Below, piece after piece: positions 4,518 through 61,135 of a stretch of DNA of 64,000 bases; position 1 is the first letter of the stretch, and each line of letters starts with the position of its first letter. This stretch comes from an uncultured Solirubrobacteraceae bacterium (GTDB lineage Bacteria > Actinomycetota > Thermoleophilia > Solirubrobacterales > Solirubrobacteraceae): assembly GCA_963811895.1 (NCBI GenBank), contig CAWETE010000001.1:76160-140159 (forward strand), in the 5' to 3' direction. The notes beneath the pieces are model-generated. The model was not told where the DNA came from. It saw only the letters and a program-made list of their open reading frames with translations, and ran no database searches. The translations under genes were made by a program, and so were the position numbers.

Positions 4518-6450
4518 GTGGACGTTGTGCACGGCCCCTGCGCCCGGCGCGAACTCGTCAGCGCCGGTCTTGAGCCGATGCGGTTGGCGCGGATCGTAGC
4601 GGGCGCCCGGAGCGTCGCGCCGCAGTCAGAAGCTTGTCAGTGCATCAGGCACGCCCTCGCGACGGCTGAAGCGATGGCGCTGACGCCCGGGTTCTGGGAG
4701 GCTGGACGCGGCATCGCCATGCCGCCATCGCAGCCCATTCGCAGCGTCGCGATCGGCCGCAGCGTCATCACGGTCGGAGTGCCCGGCGGAACGCTGATCA
4801 CGGCCGGCACGCGGCTGTCCGCGGACGCCGAGACCGCGGATCCGCTCGAGCTCGCGGCGGCGCTGGCCGAGGAGGAGCCGCGCGAGACGATCGGCGAGCT
4901 CACGGAGCGCTCCGTAATGACCGCCTCCGAGGCCACGGACCGCGTGGAGCAGGCCGCGGAGCTGCTGCGGGACGCGCTCGCGGGTGAGCTCGTGGACCTC
5001 GCCCGCGCAGGCCAGGTCCTCGACGTCCTGCAGCGACTGGACGAGGACGGGCGCTACGAGGAATGGCTCCACTACGCGCGCTCGGTCCACGGCGTGCTCG
5101 TGCTCCTCAAGCGCTGGATGGAGCTCCTGAGGCTGCTGCGGACGCTCCTGCGCAGCGGCGCCGAGGTCCACGAGGCCGGCCGCGCGTGGGTCCAGCACGA
5201 GCTCGGCACCCTGCAGCTCGCCGCCGGCGACTCCAAGGAGGCGGCGAGGCTGCTGGAGCAGGCGCGGAGCACCAGGCAGCGCCTCCAGGACGGCGACGGG
5301 CTCGCCGCGACCGAGCAGAGCCTCGGCGTCCTCTGCCGCCAGCAGGCGCAGACCGGGTTCCTCGAGCGCAACCGCGGCCGGCTCGCCGTCGTGGCGGCCC
5401 TCGCCTTGCTGCTGCTCGCCGCGGGCGGGGTGGCCGGCGCGGTCTTCAACCCGTTCGGGTCGGATCCCGAGCCGCTCACCGTGGCGGTCCAGGGAGCCGG
5501 CGTGGTCACGGCCGCGGCGGCCGCCATCAGCTGCCCGGACCGCTGCGACGCCGAGCTCGACCACGGCTCCCAGGTGACGCTCACGGCCTCCGCCCGCCGC
5601 GGCTCGACCTTCGAGGGCTGGAGCGGAGACTGCGGCGGCGCGCAGCGCTGCCGCCTGAGCATGGACGGCCCGCGCACCGCCACGGCGCGCTTCGTCCGCA
5701 CGGCCGAGGCGCGGGCGGTCACCGTGCGCAAGGACGGCGACGGCGGCGGCCGCGTGACGAGCCCGTCCGGGATCGACTGCGGCGGCGCCTGCCGCACCAG
5801 CGTCGAGCGCGGGACCCAGGTGCGGCTGGACGCCATCGCCGACGAGGGCTCGACCTTCGAGGGCTGGACCGGCGCCGGCTGCGGGCAGGCCTCGCCGTGC
5901 CGGTTCACCGCGCAGGACGCGGTCACGGTCACGGCGCTGTTCACCGCGGAGCCCATCCCGGCCGGCGAGTTCCCGCTCACGGTGAGACGGAGCGGAGACG
6001 GCACCGTGACCAGCGAGCCGCCCGGCATCGACTGCGGAGACGACTGCGACGATTCGTTCGACGCGGACAGCGTGGTCGAGCTGTTCCAGGTGGCGGGCGA
6101 GGGTTGGGACTTCGCCGGCTGGGCCGGGGCCGGCTGCTCGGGCACGGACACCTGCCGCGTGCCGATGACGAAGGCGCGGGCGGTGAAGGCCGGCTTCGTT
6201 CCCGAGCAGCCCGTCCGGTTCACCCTGACCACGTCGACGACAGGCGCCGGCGAGCTCAGCCCGCCCTGCACCTCGGGCTGCGACTTCGACGCAGGCACCG
6301 CAGGTCCCGCTCACGGCCACGCCGGCCGGCGAGAACAACAGCGTGGCCTGGACGGGCTGCACGCCGGCGGTGCCCGGCGCCACCAGCTGCGAGGTCACGA
6401 TGTCCGAGAACCGCCAGGTCTCGGCGCGCTTCTTCTTCGCCGAGCCCTGA
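4518..6450 (+). CDS. Membrane-anchored protein with about six tandem divergent InlB B-repeat-like (Listeria-Bacteroides type) Cys-containing repeats; last repeat reached only after a +/-1 frame change near 6297
   Basis: Repeats of consensus G(D)G.VTS.P.GIDCG..C........V.L.A.A..GS.F.GW.G.GC.G...C between ~5460 and 6450. One predicted TM helix (AVVAALALLLLAAGGVAGAVF). Frame of ORF 4518..6476 loses the repeat pattern at ~6297. The shifted frame reads ...VPLTATPAGENNSVAWTGCTPAVPGATSCEVTMSENRQVSARFFFAEP* ending at 6450. Start position is uncertain (GTG 4518 or ATG 4674). Confidence 0.6.
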
Positions 6451-6498
6451 AACTCCTCAAATCCACTCAGCTTTGACCGAGTTTGTACGCTCTCTGCC

Positions 6499-6780
6499 AT
6501 GACGTACGTGATCGTGGGGAGCTGCGTGAAGGACGACTCGTGCATCGAGGTCTGTCCCGTCGACTGCATCCACCCCAAGCCCGGCGACCCCGACTTCGAG
6601 ACGGCCGAGCAGCTCTACATCGACCCTGCGCTGTGCATCGACTGCGACGCCTGCGTCGAGGCCTGCCCGGTCGACGCGATCTACGCCGAGGCCGAGACGC
6701 CGGAGCGGTTCGCGTACGCGAAGGACCTCAACGAGGAGTTCTTCGCCGAGCGCAGCACGATCGAGCGGACGGCCGCGTGA
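6499..6780 (+). CDS. Ferredoxin (2x[Fe-S], FdxA-like 7Fe type)
   Basis: 93 aa starting MTYVIVGSCV... with CIDCDACVEACP (CxxCxxCxxxCP) plus a second Cys cluster C9/C15/C19/C23. Its stop overlaps the next gene's GTG start (GTGA). Confidence 0.85.
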   Translation: MTYVIVGSCVKDDSCIEVCPVDCIHPKPGDPDFETAEQLYIDPALCIDCDACVEACPVDAIYAEAETPERFAYAKDLNEEFFAERSTIERTAA

Positions 6781-58748: not shown

Positions 58749-59498
58749 CTACACGAGAGCGAGCACGCGTGACGGGCTGCCGGTCCCGTCGACGAGCTTG
58801 AGCGGCGCGACGACGATCACCGCCCCCGTGGGCGGCAGCTCGGCCAGGTTGGCGAGCTGGGTGATCCCGTACCTGCCCGCCCCGAGCAGGAAATGGTGGA
58901 CGGGGAACGCCGGCTCGAAGCTGTGCGCTATGCCCGCGTCGGTGCCCACGGTCTCCACGCCGAAGCCGGTGATCGGCGCCTCCTCGGCCAGCCAGCGCGC
59001 GCACTCGGCGTCCGGGCCGGGCGTGTGGCCGCCGTTGAGGAACGCCTCCTGGTCCGAGGCGCGCGAGTCCCAGCCGGTGCGCAGCAGCAGCCAGCCGCCC
59101 TCGGGCAGCGGGCCGTGCTCGGCCTCGAAGACGCGGACGTCGTCGAGCGTGAGCAGGTAATCCGGGTCCGACGCGGCCTCGGCGGACTTGTCGATCACCA
59201 CCGCCGGCCCGACGAGCCGGGACGGGGGCACGCTCGCCACGTCCTCCCCGTCACGACCGGTGATCCAGTGGATCGGCGCGTCGAAGTGGGTGCCGACGTG
59301 CTCCCCGACCTCGAGCACGTCCCACGCCCAGGCGGGCCCCGCATCGTCGTAGCGGCTGATCGGGCGGCGGCTCAGGCCCGGTGTGTTGGCGAACGGCTCC
59401 GGGAGGAACAGCACCGGGGTGCGCTCGCTCAGCGGCTGCGTGAGGTCGACCACCCGCACCTCTCCGGAAGCGAGCGCTGCGACGAGATCTCCGAGCAT
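58749..59498 (-). CDS. Cyclase-family protein (kynurenine-formamidase-like metal-dependent hydrolase)
   Basis: ATG 59498 with aaggagag RBS. HxGTHxDxPxH motif (GEHVGTHFDAPIHW). 249 aa. Confidence 0.75.
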   Translation of the reverse strand: MLGDLVAALASGEVRVVDLTQPLSERTPVLFLPEPFANTPGLSRRPISRYDDAGPAWAWDVLEVGEHVGTHFDAPIHWITGRDGEDVASVPPSRLVGPAVVIDKSAEAASDPDYLLTLDDVRVFEAEHGPLPEGGWLLLRTGWDSRASDQEAFLNGGHTPGPDAECARWLAEEAPITGFGVETVGTDAGIAHSFEPAFPVHHFLLGAGRYGITQLANLAELPPTGAVIVVAPLKLVDGTGSPSRVLALV

Positions 59499-59508
59499 GT
59501 CTCTCCTT

Positions 59509-61135
59509 TCAGTGTCCGCGGAAGGCCTCTTCGAGCCAGTCCGCGCAGATGTCCGGGTCGACGCGGGCGTCGACCACCAGCGGGCGGTCGGGGTCCTCGA
59601 GCCAGTCACGTACAGCGTCGAGGTCCTGCACGCTCCGCGCCTCCAGCCCGCGGCAGCCTGCCGCCTCGGCGAGCGCCGCGAAGTCGGTGTCGGGGAACTG
59701 CGCGAGGTCGACCGCCTGGCCCATCGGCCGGAAGTGGTGGACCTCGGCGCCGTAGGCCGCGTCGTCGTAGATGAGCACCATCAGGTTCGGCTTCAGGCGG
59801 CCGAGCGTCTCGAGCTCGGGCAGCGCCATCAGCGCGCCGCCGTCGCCGAGCGCCGCCACGGTCAGCCGGTCGGGCCGCGCCAGCGAGGCGCCGATCGCGT
59901 TCCCGAGCCCGAGCCCGACGCACTGGAAGGCCTGCGGGAAGACGAAGCCCGCGGCGTCCGGAACGCGCAGGTACATCGACGGCCAGCCCATGAAGTGGCC
60001 GGAGTCGACGACCACGGTGCGCTCGAGCGGGAGCATGGCGTCGAGCGCGAGCGTCAGCGTGCGCGGGTCGAGCCGGCCCTCGACGGCTGCGTCCTCGAAT
60101 GGGTCGCGTTGCCACGCGCCCGCGGCGATCCGCTCGCCCAGCGCCGTCGGTCCGGCGCACCGGATCGTTCCCCTCCAGCGCGGCGACCAGCGCCTCGGCG
60201 GTGGCTCGCGCGTCGCCGATCACGCCGATGTCGACCGGCCGGTGCGCGCCGATGGCGTCGGCGTCCAGGTCGACCTGGGCCACGCGGGCACGCTGCGCGA
60301 TCAGGGTCCCGTGGCGCGTCGTCCACTGGTTCAGCGCGGCGCCGAAGGCGACGACGACGTCCGCCTCGCCCAGCAGCTGCGCCGCGACGGGCGACGAGAA
60401 GCCGCCGGCGATGCCGACCGCGTACGGGTCGCCGGCGAACAGCCCGTTCGCCACGGCCGAGGTGGCGAGCACGGCGCCGGTCAGCTCGCCAAGCCGCCGC
60501 AGGGCGGGACCCGCGCCGGCCAGCACGGCTCCCCGGCCGGCGATGATCGCGGGCCGGTCGGCCTGCGCGAGCAGCTCCGCGAGGGCGTCGACCGAGCCGG
60601 GACGCGGTGGCGCCAGCGCGGGCAGCGGCGGCGGCAGCTCCGGATCGCACTCGGCGGCCTGCACGTCGAGCGGCAGCATCAACACCACGGCGCGGCGCTC
60701 GACCGTCGCGCGCCGCACGGCGCGGGCGACGTCGGCCATCGCCGTCTGCGGCCCGTGCACGCGCTCGGCGACGGCGCCGACCGACTGCACGAGACCGGCC
60801 TGGTCGATCCGGAAGTTCGAGCGCAGGGCGGCGGCGGGCGTGTCGGCGGCGATCACGATGACCGGCGTGCGGCTCTTGGCCGCCTCGGTCAGGCCGGTCA
60901 CCGTGTTGGTGAGCCCCGGCCCCTGGTGCACGCTGCAGGCGGCGAGCCTCCCGCTCACGCGGCCGTAGCCGTCGGCCATGCAGATCGCCCCGCCCTCGTG
61001 GCGTGAGGCATGGAACGGCACGCCCGCGTCGCGCAGCGCGTTGGTGACGGTCAGATTGCCGCTTCCGAGCAGGCCGAAGACGGCGTCGACGCCCAGCGAC
61101 GCGAGCGCCCTGCCGACCGCCTCCGCGACGATCAA
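59509..61135 (-). CDS. Thiamine-pyrophosphate-dependent enzyme, acetolactate-synthase-large-subunit-like; one frame change near 60170
   Basis: TTG 61135 overlaps the upstream stop (TTGA). N-terminal TPP_enzyme_N (GVDAVFGLLGSGNL...ASRHEGGAICMADGYGR). After ...ATAEALVAALEG the frame shifts to ORF 59509..60036 (...GPTALGERIAAGAWQRDPFEDAAVEGRLDPRTLTLALDAMLPLERTVVVDSGHFMGW...GDGGALMALPELETLGRL..., the TPP-binding C-domain). Confidence 0.65.

Follow-up and report, generated by a model that had tools for sequence, protein, structure and literature searches.

Frameshift excess in a Solirubrobacteraceae contig very likely reflects, for the most part, mixed-strain consensus artefacts rather than genome decay

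The window, a stretch of 64,000 nucleotides from a Solirubrobacteraceae contig with a GC content of 72%, contains nine genes that are each broken by a single frameshift, two genes that appear 'shredded', a tandem repeat and a site where a short filler stands in place of 1,076 bp. All nine frame breaks listed in an earlier, sequence-only reading were found, each within about 25 nt of the position given there, and the excess of disrupted genes on which that reading had remarked (11 or more of about 60) is real in the sequence. Pfam domains are divided between frames at the lesions, intact orthologues of all nine genes were located in sister assemblies, and a GC3 frame plot revealed the frame switches without the use of homology.

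The window is most closely related to contigs of Flye style and to "MFD" MAGs from the Microflora Danica project, with nucleotide identities of 97.9–99.5% (97.9% for assembly L081 and 99.5% for L084); their records are named 'MFD...bin' for the Solirubrobacteraceae MAGs and contig_N for the ENA contigs. About 15 assemblies made independently from this population were compared, together with short-read JGI contigs. The Microflora Danica metagenomes were sequenced by Nanopore alone, and their Flye assemblies were polished in one Medaka round (PMC12313526). From the technology used for its relatives, we infer that the window derives, as a contig or a piece of a MAG, from long-read assembly of a soil metagenome that contains a Solirubrobacteraceae population; very probably it was assembled in the manner of Microflora Danica and received no short-read polishing.

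The gene for an InlB B-repeat (Flg_new_2)/TPR protein (4746–6450, plus strand; Pfam match) carries an additional C at 6301, about 50 codons ahead of its stop, and the last 48 residues of the orthologue in L082, where the gene is intact, align to a second frame of the window. Neither L081 nor L082 has the extra C; an inserted base at the same place was seen in L083, an assembly rich in errors, and L081 carries a separate +1 of its own at 6259 in this gene. In the gene for a PT-rich membrane protein (8108–8894, minus strand; 257 aa in L082), two bases are missing at 8649, where GGGGGAGG is shortened to GGGGGG. The protein was traced by tblastn in frame −3 and then in frame −1, and in a four-way alignment only the window shows the lesion. 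The neighbouring ferredoxin (6499–6780) and FprA-like (6777–8111) ORFs were considered as a further frameshift and rejected, being two normal overlapping genes. The tannase-like DUF6351 gene (12419–14540, plus strand) has a +1 C at 13749 and matches Pfam model positions 1–423 and 421–654 in two frames; homologues without the break are 706–708 aa long and 97–99% identical. At this site, which was scored as SNP-merge type, the window reads CAGACAGG, and its relatives read CAGAAGG, CAAAAGG or CAACAGG.

The ROK glucokinase gene (36904–37876, minus strand) contains a +1 at 37644 that places Pfam model positions 2–71 and 74–292 in two frames; the gene is intact in L085 (323 aa, 99.4% identical). At the lesion, the window and L084 read GACGACGACGGCC, L085 reads GACGACGCGGCC and L086/L087 read GACGACGACGCC. 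A secreted protein with a Pfam match to DUF6345 (45483–47283, minus strand) is interrupted by a window-private +1 at 46094; its L084 counterpart is intact (599 aa, 99.7–100% identical), and L086 has a separate lesion 5 nt away. In the gene for a LAL-family regulator with AAA_16, TPR_MalT and GerE domains (48096–51010, minus strand), the Pfam matches are split by a −1 at 50235, where a base is lost at a C/G polymorphic column. The same drop occurs in the distant L093, and the gene is unbroken in L001, L089 and L091. A −1 at 53602 splits the Pfam match of the FAD_binding_4/ALO oxidase (52727–54066, plus strand), which is unbroken with 446 aa in L088, L089 and L091. The sequence-only reading had described this lesion as ggccc versus ggcccc, which is wrong: in the window, the alleles ACCGGGCCCTC and ACGGGCCCGTC are combined into the chimeric ACGGGCCCTC. 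The TPP enzyme, with N, M and C domains (59509–61135, minus strand), is likewise split in its Pfam match by a +1 at 60147, where the window has GT and sister assemblies have G or T alone; unbroken copies of 541 aa were found in L091 and L095.

The ninth frame change lies in an 866-bp tandem direct repeat (39018–40741, plus strand; copies at 39018–39883 and 39875–40741). Copy 1 holds a divergent small gene (39403–39876) with a frame change near 39740, and copy 2 an intact 157-aa gene (40261–40734). Only one copy is present in L084 and in L086; it is 98–99% identical to copy 2 and 88.7% identical to copy 1, and the arrangement in the window is possibly a false haplotype duplication.

The 'shredded' M14 carboxypeptidase gene (32701–34514, plus strand) is made up of an L087-type allele, eight +1 insertions and 49 L085-type bases. 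Two intact alleles of this gene, of 603 aa (L085) and 593 aa (L087), were found to be only 83% identical to each other. The window copy matches L087 at 97.1% identity with indels of +8/−0, carries the L085 base at 49 of its 54 mismatches to L087 and changes allele 55 times across 300 informative columns; L084 shows reciprocal contamination by the other allele. Two intact alleles are interleaved here as a mosaic, and what had been taken for a decayed gene is an artefact.

The second 'shredded' gene, encoding a patatin/DUF3376 protein (55427–58530, plus strand), is intact in L091 (1040 aa), forms an uninterrupted ORF in L001 and is absent from L002–L004. The copies of the window and of its sister L089 are each about 74% identical to L091. 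They have at least three frame breaks in common, which persist after removal of assembly-specific indels; between the two copies there are 59 indels and 190 mismatches. The degenerate copy, which the sister assembly carries as well, is probably a real strain difference.

The 1,076 bp present in L084, L086 and L087 are replaced in the window by a 47-nt filler (32075–32121, plus strand), for which no second occurrence was found among the sequences compared. The replacement results in an in-frame fusion of abhydrolase aa 1–266 with Band7 aa 75–267, and NfeD is gone. This fusion of two genes had been overlooked in the first reading. The loss is hard to produce by base-level consensus error, which counts against reading the window as artefact only, and it is probably a real strain difference.

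Comparison of the assemblies revealed that the same conserved genes are hit by 1-nt indels that differ from one assembly to the next; three of the assemblies (L001, L082 and L091) are essentially clean. In 11 shared genes, the number of frameshifting indels was 0 for L001, 1 for L091 and 4–60 for each of ten other assemblies, at differing positions; genes unbroken in the window, e.g., CysDes, are hit in other assemblies as well. In the left part of the region, L082 is clean, and private lesions number about 20 in L081 and about 50 in L083. Lesions shared by related strains had been proposed as an indication of common ancestry rather than error; only one of the nine single lesions, that of ROK, is also found in the 99.5% identical sister (L084/L089), from which the other eight are absent and which shows, over the same 15 kb, about 25 lesions private to itself. 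Short-read JGI contigs contain full-length tannase and ROK genes at 85–96% identity.

The private 1-nt indels of the related assemblies comprise 155 insertions and 38 deletions. In 97 of the 155 insertions (63%), the inserted base matched the other allele seen at a neighbouring SNP column, against an expectation of 13.9 (9%). L086 has 18 private insertions without this SNP-merge signal, at positions where only two to three comparators are available. In the window itself, the tannase, ROK, TPP, LAL and ALO lesions all fall on columns with two alleles among the sister assemblies. Where the sequence-only reading had set homopolymer-type sequencing error against genuine decay, the side of error is upheld; its homopolymer model is not, the lesions instead tracking strain polymorphism.

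Taken from these sequence comparisons, the frameshifts are very likely, for the most part, mixed-strain long-read consensus artefacts, reflecting neither genome decay nor simple homopolymer error, and mixed read pile-ups would be their direct cause. Several close strains would co-occur in the soil sample and be collapsed by the assembler to one consensus. At a SNP or small multi-base difference, consensus calling or polishing may sometimes retain both alleles side by side, giving a +1; it may also lose a base (−1) or switch from one allele to the other. Every such event would throw out of frame a gene that all real strains carry intact, and the density of errors would follow local strain divergence, so that conserved genes receive one lesion and M14, with alleles of 83% identity, is shredded.

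Both components of this explanation have precedents. Consensus indels of Nanopore data shift the frame of called genes, and short-read polishing is required for metagenome bins with a coverage of less than about 40x (PMC9262707). Lightly polished or unpolished Nanopore-only metagenome assemblies, with their fragmented gene calls and low IDEEL scores, likewise show single-base indels in conserved genes, at a frequency that varies strongly among assemblies of one organism and with none in short-read assemblies; the technology is the same as for the relatives of the window (PMC12313526, PMC9262707). Flye merges strains of about 98.7% identity into a single consensus, and such strain-oblivious assembly, as described with Strainberry, fuses strains of 98–99% identity in one contig (PMC8302730). 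The M14 gene of the window likewise mixes two haplotypes position by position, and 39018–40741 may be a corresponding false haplotype duplication. Descriptions of classical Nanopore error stress homopolymers, whereas here insertions outside homopolymers, at strain SNPs, prevail. The insertion of an alternative allele beside the reference allele, resulting in a frameshift, was not reported in the strain-collapse and Nanopore-error literature covered by a non-exhaustive search.

A mixed reading, in which the single frameshifts are mostly artefacts but one or more of the nine, with ROK as the likeliest candidate, represent real frameshift alleles that segregate in the population, is rather unlikely. 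Real mutations are expected to be common to sister lineages by descent, and the ROK +1, common to the window and its sister L084, could be such an inherited mutation. The same +1 occurs in the window, L084 and a cluster representative on a 336-kb NCBI contig, the latter being judged by an identical 238-aa fragment. Two other ROK +1 insertions are common to L086 and L087, which derive from two different samples, and no adjacent polymorphism is visible there. Against this, the ROK sequence of the window and L084 is an exact overlap-merge of in-frame alleles from L085 and L086, and the protein is, apart from the shift, 100% identical to that of intact L085, with no further decay. ROK is truncated to 215–249 aa in at least six Flye contigs, with four different truncation lengths, and is full-length in every JGI contig long enough, the shorter JGI members of the cluster lying on contigs of only 0.9–2.3 kb. 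In addition, L093, although distant, has the LAL lesion independently, which shows that site-specific recurrence occurs without common descent.

It is improbable that real mutations recently inactivated about a dozen genes in the lineage of the window, i.e., that reductive evolution formed genuine pseudogenes. The lesions are present in the sequence, that of ROK is also in sister L084, patatin is degenerate in the window and L089 alike, and the 1,076-bp loss touches three genes; the absence of patatin from several relatives further implies that gene loss occurs at that locus. However, the sister assembly lacks eight of the nine lesions and has its own private set; extrapolated genome-wide, the density of private lesions in the two would imply hundreds of inactivations inside 0.5% divergence. 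Nonsense substitutions and larger deletions had been named as marks of true decay; no nonsense codon was found in about 50 window genes, the 1,076-bp loss is the one deletion of this kind, and the nine single sites are +1, −1 or −2 changes only. The lesions fall on SNP columns at seven times the expected rate, and the genes are intact in the clean assemblies and in short-read contigs of the same population. Insertions predominate 4:1, opposite to the deletion bias of bacterial mutation, reportedly described by Mira, Ochman and Moran in 2001 and by Kuo and Ochman in 2009. There is no decay 3' of the breaks: GC3 stays at 0.96–1.00 after each single frameshift, and substitutions relative to intact orthologues retain their third-position bias (83 of 118 for LAL and 5 of 6 for ROK; also TPP and DUF6345). 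Loss of codon bias and evenly spread substitutions, the signs of relaxed constraint, were thus absent, in a test that is powerless for very recent events. Pseudogene-rich genomes are known from host-restricted or recently specialised bacteria, such as Mycobacterium leprae, Leifsonia xyli subsp. xyli and Salmonella Typhi, and display nonsense codons, deletions, IS insertions, downstream decay and lesions common to related strains. The window resembles them in its high disrupted fraction and its high-GC, actinobacterial-type sequence, but differs in its lack of nonsense codons, its insertion bias, its lack of downstream decay and its lesions being private to single assemblies.

No more probable are homopolymer-length errors of the classical kind, i.e., C/G runs miscounted by a long-read or 454-type platform. 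Homopolymer indels are the classical Nanopore error (PMC9262707), the lesion at 8649 does lie in a G-run, and intergenic differences at 47300 and 48082 fall in G and C runs. Several of the lesions had been placed in C/G homopolymers; tabulation of their sequence context revealed that 8649 is the only one of the nine in a run of five or more bases. At 13749, 6301, 37644, 46094 and 60147, the inserted base is unlike both neighbours or the run is at most two bases long. Only 37 of the 155 private insertions in related assemblies (24%) extend a homopolymer of any length, and R10.4-type data resolve homopolymers below 11 bases (PMC9262707). Programmed ribosomal frameshifting or transcriptional slippage, by which full-length proteins would be made despite the shifts, has nothing specific in its favour beyond the perfectly coding downstream frames and is effectively refuted by orthologues of 97–99.5% identity that encode the same proteins in one frame, the nine sites moreover having no common slippery motif and shifting in both directions, one by −2.

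Being, on the reading of mixed-strain consensus error, mostly an assembly artefact, the excess of frameshifts is of low biological interest. Both the loss of 1,076 bp and the degenerate patatin gene are probably real and would represent ordinary strain variation in this Solirubrobacteraceae population and not reductive evolution.

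All nine frame breaks claimed in the sequence-only reading proved to be real, as shown by split Pfam domains and by alignment to intact orthologues. A GC3 frame plot, together with a scan of codon positions, mapped about 60 genes clearly in the window, which has a GC content of 72% along its whole length. The lesions were located at 6301 (InlB-repeat protein, +1), 8649 (PT-rich membrane protein, −2), 13749 (tannase-like DUF6351 protein, +1), 37644 (ROK protein, +1), about 39740 (small-gene copy 1), 46094 (DUF6345 protein, +1), 50235 (LAL regulator, −1), 53602 (FAD/ALO oxidase, −1) and 60147 (TPP enzyme, +1). 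One Pfam domain extended across two frames in the DUF6351 protein (model positions 1-423 and 421-654) and in the ROK protein (2-71 and 74-292), and the domain sets of the LAL regulator, the ALO oxidase and the TPP enzyme were divided between two frames. The two genes previously described as shredded were identified as an M14 carboxypeptidase and a patatin/DUF3376 gene. A further frameshift, considered at the ferredoxin/FprA-like junction around 6777 by analogy with FprB-like fusions, was discarded; the clean related assembly L082 has two overlapping genes there. In the window, the 2[4Fe-4S] ferredoxin gene (6499-6780) and the FprA-like pyridine-nucleotide oxidoreductase gene (6777-8111) overlap by 4 nt in different frames, which is the same normal layout as in L082.

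Using the intact cysteine-desulfurase-like gene at 54104-55426 as a query, a scan of species-representative genomes led to Solirubrobacteraceae MAGs of the Microflora Danica (MFD) series, named 'MFD....bin...', with L001 as the best match (98% amino acid identity). Window positions 44202-64000 are syntenic with L001 at 90-95% nucleotide identity. Protein searches and exact look-ups retrieved relatives that are much closer, each an ENA metagenome contig named in the style of Flye; these included L081/L086 (97.9% nucleotide identity over window 2.4-24.5 kb), the sister L084/L089 (99.5% over 39.9-48.5 kb), L085 and L087, and ten additional contigs were included on the basis of an identical dodecin gene. 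The metagenomes behind the MFD MAGs were sequenced by Nanopore only, assembled with Flye and polished once with Medaka (PMC12313526). Judging from these relatives, the window presumably stems from the same technology.

Comparison of the assemblies revealed that the lesions differ from one to the next. In a four-way alignment of window 2.4-24.5 kb, L082 was essentially clean, the window had three frameshifting indels within genes, and L081 and L083 had about 20 and about 50 private ones, respectively, mostly 1-nt insertions. When frameshifting indels were counted against clean reference CDSs for eleven genes lying between 48 and 64 kb, L001 had none, L091 one, the window three outside patatin and each of ten other assemblies between 4 and 60; their positions and the genes affected varied by assembly, and some of these genes are intact in the window. 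In L091, patatin was called at 1040 aa, TPP at 541 aa, ALO at 446 aa and LAL at 979 aa, all of which are fragmented in other assemblies, and JGI short-read contigs of 85-96% identity encoded both tannase (694-733 aa) and glucokinase (317-324 aa) at full length. Across assemblies of the same species, the frameshift density ranged from 0 to more than 5 per kb. A lesion shared with relatives, which the sequence-only reading took to argue for common ancestry rather than error, was seen at one of the nine sites: only the ROK lesion also occurs in the 99.5% identical sister L084/L089, which had about 25 private lesions of its own over the same 15 kb. Were the lesions genuine mutations, each lineage would have had to lose the function of hundreds of genes per genome on its own within 0.5% divergence, with other members of the population remaining intact.

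Several local observations were made alongside these comparisons. Error density in the related assemblies was strongly clustered, and L081 carried ten private +1 insertions in a 1.2-kb stretch of its phosphodiesterase/5'-nucleotidase gene (window-equivalent 20183-21421), which is intact in the window (1267-aa ORF). Relative to L084 and L086, the window differs by 1 nt at position 28288, right before the stop of gene 27112-28293, which alters the C-terminus by one residue. At 23938, where a sigma-70 family gene (ORF 23749-25320, minus strand) has a C-terminal extension, the window reads GGG and L081 GGGG, and the L081 frame runs on to about 23612; since this segment is absent from L082 and L083, the difference is not polarisable. 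Apparent stops in a comparison of the malic enzyme were traced to the L084 reference, itself a frameshift-fused gene call, and not to the window.

A signature of the lesions was seen in 155 cleanly polarised private 1-nt insertions collected across the assemblies, 97 of which (63%) placed the alternative allele of the adjacent column, as present in another assembly, beside the existing base, versus an expectation of 13.9 (9%). Private 1-nt deletions numbered 38, and a homopolymer was extended by only 37 of the 155 insertions. Hence, the earlier suggestion of homopolymer-type sequencing error held as to the category but not as to the mechanism, and of the several lesions thought to lie in C/G homopolymers, only that at 8649 does so. 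The window lesions fit the polymorphic-column pattern of the related assemblies. At the tannase site, the window reads CAGACAGG and the relatives CAGAAGG or CAACAGG; at the ROK site, it reads GACGACGACGGCC, the in-frame alleles being GACGACGCGGCC and GACGACGACGCC; and at the TPP site, it has GT where the sisters have G or T. The LAL gene lost one base at a C/G SNP, with the distant L093 showing the same drop, and the ALO sequence ACGGGCCCTC is a chimera of ACCGGGCCCTC and ACGGGCCCGTC.

Reductive evolution, for which nonsense substitutions had been anticipated, is not supported: a census against about 50 reference proteins revealed no nonsense codon in any window gene, insertions were in excess and the lesions were private to individual assemblies. 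GC3 after each break was 0.96-1.00, and substitutions relative to intact orthologues were still biased to third positions. Bacterial indel mutation favours deletions, and nonsense codons are part of real pseudogene sets; the spectrum observed here is the opposite.

For the M14 carboxypeptidase (32701-34514), two intact alleles were found, in L085 (4174-5985; 603 aa) and L087 (3461-5242; 593 aa), which are 83% identical at the nucleotide level with only in-frame indels between them, in flanks of about 99% identity. The window gene is 97% identical to the L087 type and has eight frameshifting indels, all of which are +1 insertions. The L085-type base was present at 49 of its 54 mismatches, and 55 allele switches, often within a few bases, occurred over 300 allele-informative columns. 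L084 is the mirror case, an L085-type gene in which 30 bases are of the L087 type and 11 insertions occur, and L086 is nearly pure. Recombination was dismissed as the source of this mosaic, being unable to give so fine an interleaving, which a per-position consensus over a mixed two-haplotype pile-up can produce. The M14 lesions are thus the same artefact in a denser form, because one base in six differs between the co-occurring alleles. The dimorphism itself suggests that the locus holds an old polymorphism, balanced or recombined. The spread of substitutions over codon positions proved uninformative on whether M14 and patatin are pseudogenes; the intact M14 alleles were equally flat (third-position fraction 0.42) because GC3 is saturated.

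The patatin/DUF3376 gene (55427-58530) varies in presence and state: L001 and L091 have it intact, in L088, L095 and L097 it contains frameshifting indels, the copies of the window and L089 are degenerate, and several relatives (L002-L004, L090 and L092-L094) lack it between the cysteine-desulfurase and dodecin genes. Both the window and the L089 copies are about 74% identical to the intact gene. After stripping assembly-specific indels by a partial backbone repair from both copies, at least three frame breaks common to the two were left. The copies differ by 59 small indels versus 190 substitutions, and this ratio, together with the size spectrum, points to overlaid errors. Possibly, this is a real copy, degenerate or highly divergent, on which errors are superimposed.

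Further candidates for real change were structural. Within ORF 31103-32704, the window alone has a 47-nt unrelated filler (CGGGCACGCCTGCCCGCCTCCCCCTCGAATTCCCTTGTTCATACCCC, 32075-32121) in place of 1,076 bp that are kept at identical length in L084, L086 and L087. This joins aa 1-266 of the abhydrolase in frame to aa 75-267 of Band7 and eliminates the NfeD gene. No direct repeats were found at the breakpoints, and the filler had no match elsewhere among the compared sequences. This is a structural difference rather than a base-level error, and it could be a mis-join. An 866-bp tandem direct repeat (39018-39883 and 39875-40741), present as one copy in the sister assemblies, comprises in each copy the 5' 348 nt of a 455-aa Tricorn_N-like gene and a small gene of 157 aa, of which small-gene copy 1 is the first. 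The two copies are about 99% identical over their first ~470 nt and their last ~60 nt but only about 70% in the small-gene centre; this is either a real duplication that includes a hypervariable gene, or two haplotypes that the assembly placed one after the other. At window position ~14542, about 790 bp of L082 and L083 are absent from both the window and L081, and in L082 they encode the Trans_reg_C/BTAD portion of a gene whose call is fused to a flavin reductase; since two assemblies share the absence, this is probably a real difference in gene content. The ROK insertion shared with the sister could be inherited, though its sequence is an exact merge of two in-frame alleles.

It is rather unlikely that three of the lesions form a real subset, namely the ROK insertion common to the window, L084 and one NCBI contig of 336 kb, the degenerate patatin that the window has in common with L089, and the 1,076-bp abhydrolase-NfeD-Band7 loss, by which a widespread Danish soil Solirubrobacteraceae lineage would be losing sugar-kinase and lipid-hydrolase functions that sister strains keep. 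If true, this would be a standing loss-of-function polymorphism in a free-living soil bacterium, visible only through long reads linking it to its genomic background.

The frameshift excess is best regarded as an artefact of assembly that holds little biological interest, leaving a small residue of ordinary strain-level variation in gene content. Nanopore consensus indels are documented to cause frameshifted gene calls, with short-read polishing needed below ~40x (PMC9262707), and Flye collapses conspecific strains (PMC8302730). The window adds only a clear illustration that in soil populations of high microdiversity, the dominant error is the insertion of alternative alleles at strain SNPs, not homopolymer miscounting. 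This is of practical relevance to users of Nanopore-only soil MAGs: a private +1 that matches the neighbouring allele of a sister assembly is recognisable without reads, and this signature could serve to flag or repair frameshifts and spare MAG catalogues false reports of pseudogenisation or genome reduction. Dimorphic or hypervariable loci can be converted into apparent pseudogenes by assembly. The organism is not decaying, and its disrupted genes should be taken as intact in metabolic inference.
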